Source: an uncultured virus (IMG/VR IMGVR_UViG_3300010355_001052) (Duplodnaviria > Heunggongvirae > Uroviricota > Caudoviricetes). Taken from it: DNA of 62,392 nt. The stretch lies in IMG/VR virus record IMGVR_UViG_3300010355_001052, one strand, 5' to 3'. Under the pieces are notes generated by a model, which made no database searches, had not been told where the DNA came from, and saw only the letters and a list, made by a program, of their open reading frames with translations. This document shows positions 3,097 to 62,046 of this stretch, in pieces. Position 1 is the first letter of the stretch. The number at the start of each line of letters is the position of its first letter. The translations under genes and the position numbers were made by a program.

Positions 3097-5514
3097 TTAT
3101 TGGGCACCATATCCAGGATATCCTACTTGTGGAACATCTTCTTGTGATTGTTGCCAAGGATCTGCAGGCATAGACATACCTAGCTGTTTCATAGCAATGT
3201 CTGCAACTTTTGCTGGGTAACCTTTTAATGAAGGATTCTCTTCCATTATCTGATTATACACATCACTGAAAGTTGGAGCTTCACTAGAATCTGGTTTAAG
3301 AGCTCTAGGATCATGGAAATAATACTCACCACCAACAGAAGGATCAACTGCATATTGAGGGAACATTTTATTCATGTTGGCTGTATAATTTTTATTAGTT
3401 ACAGCACTAACATATTGATTAACTAAAGCATCTCTAGCTTGAGATTTACTATTATCAAAGTTCTGATTAACAGTTTGATACTTATCCCAAAGAGTAGTAG
3501 CAAGCTGAGCTTTTTGTTGAGAAGCTTGATTTAAGATATTTGCGTTCTGAGCAGCTTGTTGATTAGATACAGTAACATTTTGATTATTATATCTGCTTAA
3601 TACATCTGCAGCATTCTTTAAAGCTTGACCTTGGATCTGAGCATTACGCGCATTAAAGGATTGAGGTCCAGTAAACTGAGCTAATGTTTGTGCAGCAATA
3701 TTAGATTGTTCAGCGTTAGCAGCTAATTCTCTGGTAGGATCATAGAATGTAACTTCTGGAGTTACAACACCTGGAGTAGCTTGCCATGGGTTATATTTTT
3801 TAATACGAGCTAAGTTACCGGCAGCATGTGCAGTCTTAACTATATCTTGTAACCACCATGGTGAACCAAGATCTGCTGGTTTTTGATCAGGAAGATGTTC
3901 AGCTTTAGTTGGTGTATCTAAAACTTCTTCAGGAGATACAACTACTTCTTCACCTTCTACTATATCATTTACACCGGCTATTTGACCAGCTGTAGTATTG
4001 GTATAATAAGTATCAATTTTTGAGATCTTCTTATCTTGAGCTACACCGGTTTCATCATTAACACCAGTTTGACTAATTACAAATGGTTCAAGAACTGGGA
4101 TTAAACTCTCATCAGTAATCTTACCATTTCTAAAATCATTGATCATATCTCTATAACCAATATATGATGCTTGTTGGAAACCTTTAGTTCTAGCATCTGT
4201 AGGACTTCCTACTCCAGTAGCCACAAATACTTCATCAAGACTCTTATATGGTGAATCTTTACAAGGTGCTGTATTTAATAGTTTACCAGTAGTATTATGA
4301 TAACAGTCATATGAAACACCAGCTTCTTGTAATAAGTTATTAGTTCTAATGTTACGCGTTTGCATCTCAACAAACTGATTAGACAATTCAGCAGGAGTCA
4401 TCTTCTTTAACTCAGCTACAGTGAATCCCATGTTTCTACCTTTGTTACTAGGATTTTCAGCTGCAGCTAAAGTTTTATCATAAAGAAGTTGTTGTACTGC
4501 AGGATTAGAAAAATTAGTAGAGATCAAATTAATATGATCTTCCGGAGACATTTTCTTAGGGGTTGTAGTCTTAGTTGTTGTAGTTGTTGTAGTTCCAGTA
4601 TTCTGAGTTGTTCCTTGACCTTCTGGATATGTTGGTTCCAGTGGTCTTCTTGTAACAGTTTGTTGTTGTTGTGGTGGATTAAGAATACCAATCTTTTTAC
4701 CAAATGTATTTAATACTTCATACTGACCAGTCTGAGCATTGAAAACTACTCTATCAGATTTCTTAGGTTGAACAATTACATTGTCTCCACCGGTTTGGTA
4801 TTTTTTAGCAGCACCACCATATTTCATATTGTCTCCTGCAGGTTGAGCTGGTTGTCCTGCTTGTGGATTCATCTGTATAAAGTCAGCTGGGTTAACTTGC
4901 ATAGACTCAATATAAGGCATAGCTACTACTGGCATTCCAGTAGGAAATCCTTTCATTGACTCTTGTAATAATGCAAGCTTAGCTAACTTCATATTGTTAT
5001 TAGCTATCATACCTTCAGCTGTTTTACGCTGAAGATCATCAGTGTCCGGATCAGCAAGTATTTTTTTATACTCATTTACATCATACTTTTTAGATATGTC
5101 TGCAGGAGTATAGGATCCTTTTTGATTAATACCAAATTGAGCAAGAATCTTTTGATCCTTAATCTTCATGTTTTTAGTGTCGCTGTAGATAAAGGAATCT
5201 TCAGGTAGGTTTAATGGTGTACCTCCTTCACTATGTCTTTTACCACCAATCTTAAAAGTACTAGGTACTCCACCGGCACCAGGTACAGTAGCAGTTTCTC
5301 CTTTTTCAGCTTCTAGATTAGCTTGATTTCTAGGAACAGGTTTTAAAGTAGAGTTCAATTCTACATCTGGTTCAGACATTTGTCCTACCATACCTGGCCA
5401 TGGCATTTGATTATAATTCAAACCTTGTCCAGCTTTTAAACCTTTCAGTTGCATCTTCACATTAAGCCCTGACTGAGCTTGAGGAAGTTTATCTATTCTT
5501 ACTCTTCTTTTCAT
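3097..5514 (-). CDS. Virion cargo/ejection protein
   Basis: 805 aa, Q/N/A-rich, with an N-terminal EAEKGE...GKRHSEGG domain typical of crAss-like internal proteins; synteny supports the call. Confidence 0.6.
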   Translation of the reverse strand: MKRRVRIDKLPQAQSGLNVKMQLKGLKAGQGLNYNQMPWPGMVGQMSEPDVELNSTLKPVPRNQANLEAEKGETATVPGAGGVPSTFKIGGKRHSEGGTPLNLPEDSFIYSDTKNMKIKDQKILAQFGINQKGSYTPADISKKYDVNEYKKILADPDTDDLQRKTAEGMIANNNMKLAKLALLQESMKGFPTGMPVVAMPYIESMQVNPADFIQMNPQAGQPAQPAGDNMKYGGAAKKYQTGGDNVIVQPKKSDRVVFNAQTGQYEVLNTFGKKIGILNPPQQQQTVTRRPLEPTYPEGQGTTQNTGTTTTTTTKTTTPKKMSPEDHINLISTNFSNPAVQQLLYDKTLAAAENPSNKGRNMGFTVAELKKMTPAELSNQFVEMQTRNIRTNNLLQEAGVSYDCYHNTTGKLLNTAPCKDSPYKSLDEVFVATGVGSPTDARTKGFQQASYIGYRDMINDFRNGKITDESLIPVLEPFVISQTGVNDETGVAQDKKISKIDTYYTNTTAGQIAGVNDIVEGEEVVVSPEEVLDTPTKAEHLPDQKPADLGSPWWLQDIVKTAHAAGNLARIKKYNPWQATPGVVTPEVTFYDPTRELAANAEQSNIAAQTLAQFTGPQSFNARNAQIQGQALKNAADVLSRYNNQNVTVSNQQAAQNANILNQASQQKAQLATTLWDKYQTVNQNFDNSKSQARDALVNQYVSAVTNKNYTANMNKMFPQYAVDPSVGGEYYFHDPRALKPDSSEAPTFSDVYNQIMEENPSLKGYPAKVADIAMKQLGMSMPADPWQQSQEDVPQVGYPGYGAQ

Positions 5515-46736: not shown

Positions 46737-46811
46737 TGGGTGATAGAAGAGGATTGAACTCTTGACCTCCGGCTCCACAAACCGGCGCTCTACCTACTGA
46801 GCTATAGACCC
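46737..46811 (-). tRNA. tRNA-His(GUG) with a mispaired acceptor stem
   Basis: Canonical D arm (GCTC/GAGC), CCGGT-TTGTGGA-GCCGG anticodon arm and T-arm. The acceptor strands GGGTCTA and CTATCAC pair poorly. Confidence 0.65.
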
Positions 46812-55943: not shown

Positions 55944-56014
55944 AACCTGTTAGTATAGGGGCAGTATACCGGCCTACAAATCCGGGGACAGAGGTTCGAC
56001 TCCTCTACAGGTTA
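55944..56014 (+). tRNA. Atypical tRNA, anticodon ACA (Cys?)
   Basis: AACCTGT/ACAGGTT acceptor stem, CCGG-C-CTACAAA-T-CCGG anticodon arm, AGAGG-TTCGACT-CCTCT T-arm. Confidence 0.6.
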
Positions 56015-56042
56015 CAATTATTAATCTTAAAACCTTATTATT

Positions 56043-59524: not shown

Positions 59525-59971
59525 ATGAAAATTACACTTGCCAAAGCTCTTAAGCTTAAAAATAAAAAAGTTTCTGTTATTAACAAATTAAAGGAACGAA
59601 TAATGGAGAACAATTCTTATAATTCTAAGAATGTACCTTCATATAACTCAAGTAGATTACTTGAGGAATACAACAAGGAAGTTGAATCATTGGTTAATCT
59701 TAAAGTGGCAATTAATACAGCTAATGTTAAGATTACCGGTAGTATTCTCCAACTTTCTGAAATTAAAACTAAGATCATCATGCTCAGAAGTTTAAATACT
59801 AAAGAAGGTGAGCAAACTTATGGTTATGGTTCTAATAGAACTACTGATGTTTTAACAGCAACTATTACAGAAATACAAGCTGACAAAATGGTAGAAGAAT
59901 TAGAATTACAACTAGAAACTATTCAGGATTCTATTGATTATTTCAATGCAACTACTGAAATAGAAATCTAA
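59525..59971 (+). CDS. DIP1984/septicolysin-like coiled-coil protein
   Basis: TLAKALKLKN...N...LKVAINTAN...IQDSIDYFNATTEIEI matches the family pattern as recalled. Confidence 0.6.
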   Translation: MKITLAKALKLKNKKVSVINKLKERIMENNSYNSKNVPSYNSSRLLEEYNKEVESLVNLKVAINTANVKITGSILQLSEIKTKIIMLRSLNTKEGEQTYGYGSNRTTDVLTATITEIQADKMVEELELQLETIQDSIDYFNATTEIEI

Positions 59972-59977
59972 AAATCT

Positions 59978-60163
59978 TGACAGTACTTTGATAGAAATTA
60001 ATTATGATTAAATATGTTACATTCCGTCCTTATGGACTTCTAGCTAGCGATGATGATAATGTGTAAAAACTTAAAACTTAAGGACTAAAACATCAATCTT
60101 CAACTTTCAAAACTTATCTTACATATTTTAATTATTAATTAGTACTATTGATAAGTACTGTCA
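59978..60163 (+). ncRNA. Long hairpin RNA with seven heptamer repeats in its loop
   Basis: TGACAGTACTT/AAGTACTGTCA stem plus nested stems; heptamer repeats at 60066-60114. Confidence 0.6.
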
Positions 60164-60181
60164 TTTTTTAAAACATTGATT

Positions 60182-60418
60182 ATGGCTAAAAAAAAGACCA
60201 CAATTCTTACGTGGAACAAAATCAAAAAAGGAGGGGAATTACCTGATTTTTATAAAAGAGTTTTCATTAAATCATCACATGAATACATCACTATAGGGTG
60301 TTTAAGTGAAGAATATTATGATCACGAAGGTAAAGCAACCTGGATATGGATTGATCTAGACAGACAATCTATAGATTTACCAAAATACTGGGCTGAAATT
60401 CCTAAATCAAATGAGTAA
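60182..60418 (+). CDS. DUF551-like small protein
   Basis: WNKI....LP...V....YWAEIP pattern. Confidence 0.5.
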   Translation: MAKKKTTILTWNKIKKGGELPDFYKRVFIKSSHEYITIGCLSEEYYDHEGKATWIWIDLDRQSIDLPKYWAEIPKSNE

Positions 60419-61317: not shown

Positions 61318-62046
61318 ATGTCAAATCCAAAAGAATTAGGTCATCTAACACACATGACCTTAAAAATTGACTTACCCATACCAATGGATTTTGATATGGA
61401 ATACAATAAACTAGTATTACTATGTGGTACAAATGGATCCGGTAAAAGTCTTGTACTTAAATTAAGCTGGCTCTTTAATACAGTCATGAGTCTTGGTTTA
61501 GGTAAAAAACTGATGGGTCTTACAAAAACAAGTTTTGAAGGTTTAGTCCAGTTCACATTTGATAACACATTTGATAACCAAAATTTTAATGGTATGATCA
61601 AAGCTGAATATGAAAATGGAAATATTGTAATAGGTTTAGATCATGGTAAAGTTCTTTCATTAGAGATAATCACAGCAGATACAGTAAACTCTGTACCTAC
61701 ACCTATCTTTATGTCTACTGAAATGAGAACATTTGATCAGATTAAAAGGTTTTTTCAGTTAAGTAAATTATCTAAAATTGAAGATGATATACTTAATTAC
61801 TATAAACTTTATGATGTTACTTATGTTGAGTTCTTGAAGAAAAAGATTAACGGTAGTTACATTTTGTCTGAAGATTTTAAGGATAAACTTAAAGCCTTTG
61901 ATTTAGGAAAATATGATATTCAGTCAATACAAATGACCAATGATACCATGTATTTTACTAATTCTAAAGAAGAGCAAATTGAATTAACTACTCTTTCTAA
62001 AGGTGAACAAAGCCTTCTTAACATGTTTTTAGGAGGCGGAGCTTAA
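61318..62046 (+). CDS. ABC-type (AAA_15/21-like) ATPase lacking its C-terminal Walker B
   Basis: Walker A GTNGSGKS and signature LSKGEQ; the protein ends 11 residues after the signature. Confidence 0.6.
   Translation: MSNPKELGHLTHMTLKIDLPIPMDFDMEYNKLVLLCGTNGSGKSLVLKLSWLFNTVMSLGLGKKLMGLTKTSFEGLVQFTFDNTFDNQNFNGMIKAEYENGNIVIGLDHGKVLSLEIITADTVNSVPTPIFMSTEMRTFDQIKRFFQLSKLSKIEDDILNYYKLYDVTYVEFLKKKINGSYILSEDFKDKLKAFDLGKYDIQSIQMTNDTMYFTNSKEEQIELTTLSKGEQSLLNMFLGGGA

Follow-up and report, generated by a model that had tools for sequence, protein, structure and literature searches.

On the Bacillus trp leader, the 11-subunit ring of TRAP reads 11 GAG/UAG triplets that lie 2-3 nt apart, and HutP works in a similar way. 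In type III toxin-antitoxin systems (ToxIN, CptIN, and TenpIN), the antitoxin RNA carries repeats of about 34-45 nt and is encoded upstream of the toxin gene. The protein Ro60 (Rsr) is accompanied by Y RNA or YrlA, whose ends form a long stem around a functional loop. The sponge RNAs CsrB and RsmZ present GGA motifs in hairpin loops at irregular spacing and are unlinked to the gene of the protein. The tRNA cluster of phage T4 contains the stable small RNAs species 1 and 2 (rnaC/rnaD), which are not known to have a partner protein. Here I analyzed a stretch of 62,392 nucleotides from an uncultured virus of Caudoviricetes (IMG/VR record IMGVR_UViG_3300010355_001052), and "the window" means this whole stretch. 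In the window, a gene for a distant DIP1984/DUF6847-family protein (59525..59971, + strand) is directly followed by a structured RNA element of 186 nt (59978..60163, + strand) that carries a periodic array of short motifs. The analysis shows a real RNA that has structure, strand specificity, and periodicity and that is strictly linked to the gene, and there is very little doubt that the two form a dedicated RNA-protein module. The RNA element is undescribed in that it matches no Rfam 15 family and that a literature search found no paper on it.

The gene lies in an A+T-rich stretch with small same-strand open reading frames (ORFs), typical of a large phage. Its 148-residue product was assigned on the basis of profile matches, a structure model, and a fold match. 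The TAA stop codon occupies positions 59969-59971, and 6 bases separate it from the start of the stem at 59978. The extent of the element, measured from closing stem to closing stem, is supported by its fold, by an inverted repeat, and by a match to R3, a covariance model obtained after three rounds of building. The 5′ arm of the long closing stem (59978..60022, +) rests on the fold and on the covariation of the homologous helices, and the 3′ arm (60116..60163, +) on the fold, the inverted repeat, and covariation. The arm segments TGACAGTACTT (59978-59988) and AAGTACTGTCA (60153-60163) are 100% complementary, and the inner arm segments pair too, with G-U pairs and one bulge. Enclosed by the stem are a small hairpin, GTCC-TTAT-GGAC (60026..60037, +), at whose place the homologs fold at least one hairpin of differing sequence, and a GAU/GA repeat segment, TAGCTAGCGATGATGATAATGTG (60042..60063, +), which is the counterpart of the conserved block UGAUnnnGAUnnnGA of the family core. 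Then come seven phased units of 7-8 nt (60064..60113, +): TAAAAACT, TAAAACT, TAAGGAC, TAAAACA, TCAATCT, TCAACTT, and TCAAAAC. They constitute a YCAAnnn/YAAnnnn array that is predicted to be single-stranded by the family consensus. A T6 run (60164..60169, +) directly follows the stem in the sequence and may be where the transcript ends on its 3′ side. The ORF after it begins at 60182.

An earlier note, made from the letters of the window, had described a stem shortly after the stop codon with further pairing segments, the small hairpin, and seven heptamers at 60066-60114 (AAAACTT, AAAACTT, AAGGACT, AAAACAT, CAATCTT, CAACTTT, and CAAAACT). All of these were found again, the heptamers exactly so. 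The second periodic segment, with GAU/GA units 6 nt apart, and the frequent embedding in tRNA gene arrays are additions of the present analysis. The 221-nt region folds at -42.7 kcal/mol, compared with -28.4 +/- 3.9 in 200 shuffles (z -3.63, 0/200 as good). Within the element, YAA motifs recur at lag 7 six times against 0.8 expected (0/1000 shuffles), and Tandem Repeats Finder reports merely 2.3 copies of AAAACTT for the array. The array of the window is degenerate, and the periodicity of this single sequence would be weak evidence; it is the comparative data that make the periodicity solid. The window is matched once by R3 (59986-60153, 70.8 bits, E 3e-9) and once by a sequence profile of the core (60045-60116, E 1.2e-8), which also supports the phased units.

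Is the pair conserved elsewhere? A search of viral contigs with the single locus sequence gave no match, whereas an alignment-based search succeeded. The homologs comprise 33 loci on viral contigs from this alignment-based search, 14 loci in species-representative genomes, all of them on contigs of metagenome-assembled genomes (MAGs), and 80 metagenome loci, one of which is the twin of the window. The region of 230-340 nt after each stop codon was folded, and the same design was found in nearly all homolog loci, from 22% to 67% G+C: a long closing stem, at least one hairpin, and an A-rich repeat region. The element begins 0-7 nt past the stop codon in AT-rich loci. The closing stems of different clades share no sequence, and MAFFT aligned a common core of 31 representatives. 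The earlier note had named, as the finding that would speak against it, homologs devoid of a downstream stem and heptamer periodicity; this was examined, and the homologs do carry both. The linkage across the homolog loci likewise bears out its idea of a module, in which gene and RNA are two parts that are conserved together.

For R3, a first set of 39 sources was used (47 loci minus 9 exact duplicates plus the window), and 28 of them were matched, as were 30 of the 80 metagenome loci. Every match lies on the strand of the gene, directly downstream, with one match per locus. Over two whole MAG genomes (8.7 and 1.9 Mb), R3 gave one match each, at the known locus. Even with filters off, R3 did not detect the G+C-rich Verrucomicrobial versions, so that the evidence there comes from the MAFFT alignment, the core profile, and single-sequence folds. 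The core profile was built from 31 seeds, and a match was counted on the + strand within 400 nt of the stop codon at E <= 0.01. It detects the G+C-rich Verrucomicrobial versions that R3 misses. After 22 loci had been set aside (duplicates or less than 250 nt downstream), 105 non-redundant loci were assessable, and the core profile matched 88 of them. Outside the seed, 59/75 loci were matched at E <= 0.01 and 68/75 at E <= 1. Off target, 482,630 nt searched on both strands gave no match at E <= 0.01. The converse approach gave a similar picture. A degenerate DNA pattern, blind to the protein, was run over the viral contigs and gave 17 matches, 14 of which are recognised by the core profile. In all 14 the gene lies upstream on the same strand, and ten of them are on contigs new to the analysis; the remaining three are chance matches inside unrelated coding DNA. 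The pair is also present in LR756500 and LR756511, two uncultured huge phages in GenBank. No conserved neighbouring protein gene was found beside the module among the loci examined, and blastn of the window region against named phages gave no match.

The structure is supported at the level of RNA. Compensatory changes occur in 24/24 stem pairs of the model-fitted alignments; 88-92% of the cells pair, compared with 39-54% with slid partners, and 0/500 shuffles reach the observed values. RNAalifold independently recovers the same helices and leaves the core unpaired. These data bear on the idea that the locus acts as DNA, for instance as a mobile element with inverted repeats, as an origin of replication, or as a site of recombination. 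Such a DNA-level element would be in keeping with the long inverted repeat, whose A+T-rich centre holds short direct repeats, and with the window alone, where both strands fold about equally well. However, the compensatory changes maintain pairing, and the stem accepts G-U and not A-C (76 G-U/U-G pairs vs 13 A-C/C-A). The element also lies always on the strand of the gene, at a fixed place, in one copy per genome. Across the family, the + strand gives the more stable fold in 18/27 elements (Wilcoxon p 0.014). A DNA-level element is therefore hardly credible. In Rfam 15, the window and 31 homolog loci gave only tRNA and tmRNA matches, and a permissive Rfam scan of 59900-60250 returned only chance-level snoRNA and miRNA matches, far under threshold.

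The array was then analyzed in the family. A metric based on chains of YAR motifs was too strict for degenerate arrays and was replaced by the profile. In 30 representatives, 42 pairs of CAA stand at lag 7, where 2.9 would be expected (z 24.7). Lag 8 is also enriched (z 10), and harmonics appear at 14/15 and 21/22 with almost nothing between. The consensus of 85 non-redundant cores is aacTGATnntGATnncGAatgTCAAAactCAangtTCAAntncTCAAAAntCAancnTcAAanCtcAAaaCTCA. In these cores, G5, G11, and G17, at a spacing of 6, and A31, A38, A46, A53, A60, and A67, at a spacing of 7 or 8, are 96-100% conserved, while the bases between the conserved positions drift with the G+C content of the genome. The family array is about 11 units of U-(G/C)-A-(U/A); that of the window consists of seven CAA/UAA-type units plus the GAU segment. 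Two candidate readings of the repeats were tried and set aside: a Rho-binding mimic, since the invariant base is A and not C, and an anticodon-loop mimic, since the base after CAA gives no support.

This array resembles the targets of TRAP and HutP in that about 11 short motifs stand at fixed spacing on single-stranded RNA, and the natural reading would be an oligomer with one site per subunit. In contrast, the protein of the window is a helical bundle, not a beta-sandwich, and matches neither the TrpBP nor the HutP family of Pfam. The period is 6-8 nt, not the 5-6 nt of TRAP, and the motif is U-S-A-W. Furthermore, the array is clamped by a stem and lies 3′ of the gene of the protein itself, whereas the TRAP site is in the leader of the regulated operon. 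Membership in the TRAP group fails on both fold and motif, and the "TRAP-like" of the earlier note stands as a reasonable but tentative analogy. CsrB and RsmZ are comparable in that many copies of a short motif on one RNA titrate a protein; here the motifs are phased in an array and the RNA adjoins the protein gene.

What is the protein? It matches NCBIfam NF038048 (DIP1984_fam) over residues 5-145 with E 1.3e-9 and 38.4 bits against a cut-off of 70, and Pfam DUF6847 (PF20935) with 26.7 bits against a cut-off of 27. Since these matches are significant yet below the cut-offs, the protein belongs to a distant branch. An AlphaFold2 model based on 14 homologs has high confidence (pLDDT 94.5) and shows a strand, a helix (residues 5-29), a long helix (42-88), a beta-hairpin, a helix (116-143), and a final strand, that is, three helices in a bundle that bears a small beta-sheet at one end. 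Among known structures, it clearly matches only 3kdq (chain 3kdq_A), with a Foldseek TM of 0.74 and E 2.9e-4. By VIA, 3kdq gives Z 13.1 and a root-mean-square deviation of 3.7 with 142 of 148 residues aligned, and the next best Z is 8.7. According to the model, the protein of the window thus has the DIP1984/DUF6847 fold, and the resemblance named in the earlier note has turned out to be a distant relationship. A profile of the family matches 1,824 cluster representatives (50% identity) at E <= 0.001, and the nearest ESM Atlas clusters are 86-98% viral. The protein is a member of a mostly viral branch of the DIP1984 family, and an identical protein is recorded on contigs as long as 124 kb.

The N-terminal helix is basic (residues 1-30, net +7; median +6 among 88 homologs) and the C-terminal helix is acidic (residues 116-148, net -9), and the same charge dipole is found among the 88 homologs. 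Polar residues that are invariant or nearly so are K10, K12, N30, K60, E79, K81, Q134, D138, and N141. No longer fused forms of the protein were found, which is weak evidence, and four longer representatives have no extra Pfam domain. A PDB sequence search with the family profile returned chance-level ribosomal-protein matches only, and tblastn of one homolog against plasmids gave no match. NF038048 found nothing at E <= 0.001 in three homolog-bearing MAG genomes, which reflects a limit of sensitivity and not absence. A literature search on the DIP1984 family, with subscription journals outside its scope, retrieved annotation mentions only, with no function and no RNA.

Do canonical DIP1984 proteins also have an RNA? 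The canonical protein (3kdq, from Corynebacterium diphtheriae) is alike in fold, in length, and in its full-length profile match, whereas the protein of the window is under both curated cut-offs and in a mostly viral branch. A canonical gene above the NCBIfam cut-off was found in 15 of 301 sampled genomes of one phylum. The profile of the CAA core found nothing at canonical loci. At the canonical Bacillota loci (L132-L145, L152, and L153), however, a same-strand GAGGGYGGG lies 165-246 nt past the stop codon in 14/16 cases. It is part of a conserved, foldable element in which CUACC..GYRCUG often stands about 28 nt before GAGGGYGGG. Thus, canonical genes have a conserved RNA-like element of their own downstream, of the GAGGGYGGG class and not of the CAA-heptad class, and the branches of the family seem to carry different RNA partners.

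These results have to be weighed against the idea that the element is simply a cis-acting 3′ end of the mRNA. In that case, the stem and the U-run would end transcription and block 3′ exonucleases, a host factor (an RNA chaperone or a ribonuclease) would read the array and set stability or translation, and the encoded protein would not be needed. The same-strand position immediately past the stop codon in AT-rich loci and the T6 run after the stem of the window suit this idea, and a protective 3′ structure would suit processed tRNA arrays. A terminator-like hairpin stands about 40 nt past the core in 28/83 loci; similar hairpins occur in 26/83 on the minus strand, and thus they leave the strand undecided. 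A consensus scan of 59978-60169 called no intrinsic terminator, and a promoter/terminator scan of the window was uninformative. The stem of the window encloses about 90 nt and is A+T-rich, unlike a short G+C-rich terminator hairpin, although T6 follows it. Moreover, a stabiliser does not need some 11 phased motifs with invariant bases across phages, several bacterial phyla, and 22%-67% G+C. The element accompanies only this gene family, as the lack of off-target matches and the single match per whole genome indicate, and the different RNA of the canonical genes argues for a family-specific partner and not for a generic 3′ end. I regard a purely cis-acting 3′ end as rather unlikely, although it is the rival I take most seriously.

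It was found that tRNA genes frequently flank the module. Within flanks of 1.2-2.5 kb, 41/113 non-redundant loci have tRNA genes, and 145 of the 146 flanking tRNAs are on the strand of the gene. A tRNA has its end 28-47 nt upstream of the start codon in 16 loci. In 19 loci a tRNA ends at most 150 nt before the start codon, and 14 of these are tRNA-Ile; in 24 loci a tRNA starts just past the element, and 16 of these are tRNA-Phe. The recurrent order is tRNA-Ile(GAU), gene, RNA, and tRNA-Phe(GAA). Much of the adjacency is one conserved arrangement and probably reflects one clade; other clades have other tRNAs beside the module. Dense same-strand tRNA arrays hold the pair in L083 (11 tRNAs within 2.8 kb), L091, L107, L064, L037, L080, L096, and others. 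Several contigs with such arrays are filed as bacterial MAGs and yet look phage-like.

The module of the window stands 3.5 kb downstream of its nearest tRNA. At 55944-56015, ARAGORN calls a tRNA-Cys whose anticodon, ACA, is unusual, and Rfam also finds a tRNA there (53.4 bits). A partial Rfam tRNA match (46747-46804 on the minus strand, model positions 8-63, 46.1 bits) adjoins tRNA-Arg and tRNA-Gln; it is not called by ARAGORN and may be a truncated or unusual tRNA.

The tRNA context invites comparison with two of the systems introduced above. Like Y RNA, the element has an end-to-end stem, is encoded beside its protein partner, and occurs in tRNA-like contexts. At one locus only (L041:748-2358), the DIP1984-like gene is immediately preceded by a gene with a TROVE domain (Ro60-like), and tRNA-Leu genes lie upstream of both. 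In contrast, the partner here is not a TROVE protein, no Y RNA family of Rfam is matched, and the loop consists of a periodic A-rich array in place of a tRNA-like module. The species 1 and 2 RNAs of T4 are alike by description only, as structured non-tRNA RNAs in phage tRNA arrays, presumably released by tRNA-processing enzymes.

The RNA might also be a decoy or sponge for a factor encoded elsewhere, such as a nuclease directed at tRNAs, an enzyme that modifies tRNAs, or an RNA-binding protein of the host, with the DIP1984-like protein merely assembling or stabilising it. A unit of 7 nt has the length of an anticodon loop, and this idea would account for the same-strand tRNA genes, for their closeness before and after the module, and for the TROVE gene of L041. 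However, the adjacency is largely the one arrangement of probably one clade, and the copy in the window stands far from any tRNA. The base after CAA is not consistently a purine, unlike position 37 of the anticodon loop, and the protein matches no defence or anti-defence family in a meaningful way (PADLOC). A decoy for such a factor is unlikely in my view.

A toxin-antitoxin-like pair should also be considered; a type III-like system was one of the options in the earlier note. As in type III systems, one protein gene adjoins a repeat-bearing RNA, and the pair is mobile between phages and bacteria. However, no match to the endoribonuclease type of ToxN, AbiQ, CptN, and TenpN was found in Pfam, NCBIfam, or PADLOC, and the protein is modelled as a helical bundle. 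With 6-8 nt, the units are about 7 nt long as opposed to about 35 nt, and they are enclosed by a clamping stem downstream of the gene. Membership in type III is thus not upheld. A differently built pair, in which the RNA would neutralise a harmful protein by sequestering several copies, would fit a stand-alone two-part module that has no conserved neighbours and is spread over phages, MAG contigs, and metagenomes, as well as an RNA that bears repeats. DIP1984-family members on Acinetobacter plasmids carry the annotation "septicolysin" in the part of one report that was available (PMC3358182), which would also suit a harmful protein. On the other hand, no terminator separates the RNA from the gene, the embedding in tRNA arrays of phages sets the pair apart from addiction modules, and toxicity of the protein has no support in this analysis. 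Together with the lack of a toxin family or fold, these points make a toxin-antitoxin-like pair distinctly improbable.

I propose that the stem clamps and protects the ends of the RNA and displays the phased array, and that protomers of the neighbouring protein bind side by side, about one per unit. The DIP1984-like gene would be co-transcribed with the RNA of about 186 nt that starts 6 nt past its stop codon. The 5′ and 3′ ends would zip into the long stem, from which an unpaired strand of about 70 nt would be held out with about 11 evenly spaced U-(G/C)-A-(U/A) motifs. The first three would be GAU/GA units at a distance of 6 nt, followed by seven or eight (Y)CAA units at a distance of 7-8 nt, in each of which one A is nearly invariant. 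Several protomers side by side on the array could make a particle of defined size, and the basic N-terminal helix and the polar residues, all of them conserved, may do the binding. In the earlier note, the protein was put forward as a putative ring or filament whose subunits would each bind one heptamer. In relatives inside tRNA arrays, tRNA-processing enzymes would probably excise the transcript. The contact with the array, the stoichiometry of one protomer per unit, and any downstream function are what I infer from the arrangement, and my belief in this mechanism is about evenly divided between yes and no.

Several observations weigh against it. The putative contact between protein and RNA is read from their genomic linkage alone, and the motifs could instead be read by a factor of the host or by a different one of the phage. 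Overall, the protein is close to neutral (isoelectric point 6.4), which is atypical for RNA-coating proteins. The spacing is irregular (6, 7, and 8 nt) and the number of CAA-type units is about 7-8 and differs by lineage, and thus a fixed ring size is not implied. Single-sequence minimum-energy folds pair part of the array with the GAU segment, so that the array may not be fully single-stranded. The UUGA of the GAU segment is complementary to the UCAA of the heptad units, in the window (60042-60113) and in homologs. RNAalifold predicts this pairing in one clade and the wider alignment does not; the bases concerned are invariant, and covariation therefore cannot bear on it. The covariation figures are generous, as they come from model-fitted alignments of related sequences that are biased to the modelled structure. 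Many loci come from few clades, and the counts are thus not independent events. Finally, 17/105 loci fail the bar of E <= 0.01. Among these misses, several are weakly caught by R3, L067 and L078 carry an element that visibly varies, with units of UAA and a hairpin inserted, and L111 looks different.

A bolder version can be formulated. The module might be an undescribed, widespread ribonucleoprotein of large phages and some bacteria, in which about 11 protomers of the DIP1984 fold would polymerise on a clamped, periodic U-S-A-W array (3 x 6 nt + 8 x 7 nt) that their own gene carries at its 3′ end. It would be made from tRNA operons by tRNA-processing enzymes and would act in tRNA conflict, for instance by serving as a decoy to enzymes that hold anticodon loops of 7 nt, and the branches of the family would have co-evolved different RNAs. 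The whole of this combination is speculative, and I consider it improbable.

Some loci show further peculiarities. In L129:1836-1950 (LR756511, a 595-kb uncultured phage), a lysine-rich ORF of about 28 residues with a KK-repeat lies between the DIP1984-like gene and the RNA. In L013:2965-3260, a G+C-rich phage locus, the heptad core is about 250 nt past the stop codon, and the inserted stretch includes a tRNA T-arm-like GGTTCGATTCC flanked by a stem, for which neither ARAGORN nor Rfam calls a tRNA. In L034, on a contig filed as an Eubacteriales MAG, genes for GIY-YIG/NUMOD3 homing endonucleases flank the module (1567-2352 and 4434-5075), which suggests phage DNA. In the window, an ORF of 242 residues (61318-62046) has weak matches to P-loop ATPases (AAA_15 and ABC_tran) under the curated cut-offs.

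The DIP1984/DUF6847 family has had a crystal structure since 2009 and is still without a function, and the present results make it a testable RNA-protein system. A specific RNA, strongly conserved, accompanies one branch of the family, and another RNA accompanies the canonical members. A clamp stem that displays about 11 phased motifs is an unusual design, and it offers a handle on binding, stoichiometry, and structure. That the module so often sits in tRNA arrays of phages suggests a connection with tRNA biology or with the conflict between phage and host, in an active area where few non-tRNA RNAs have been characterised.

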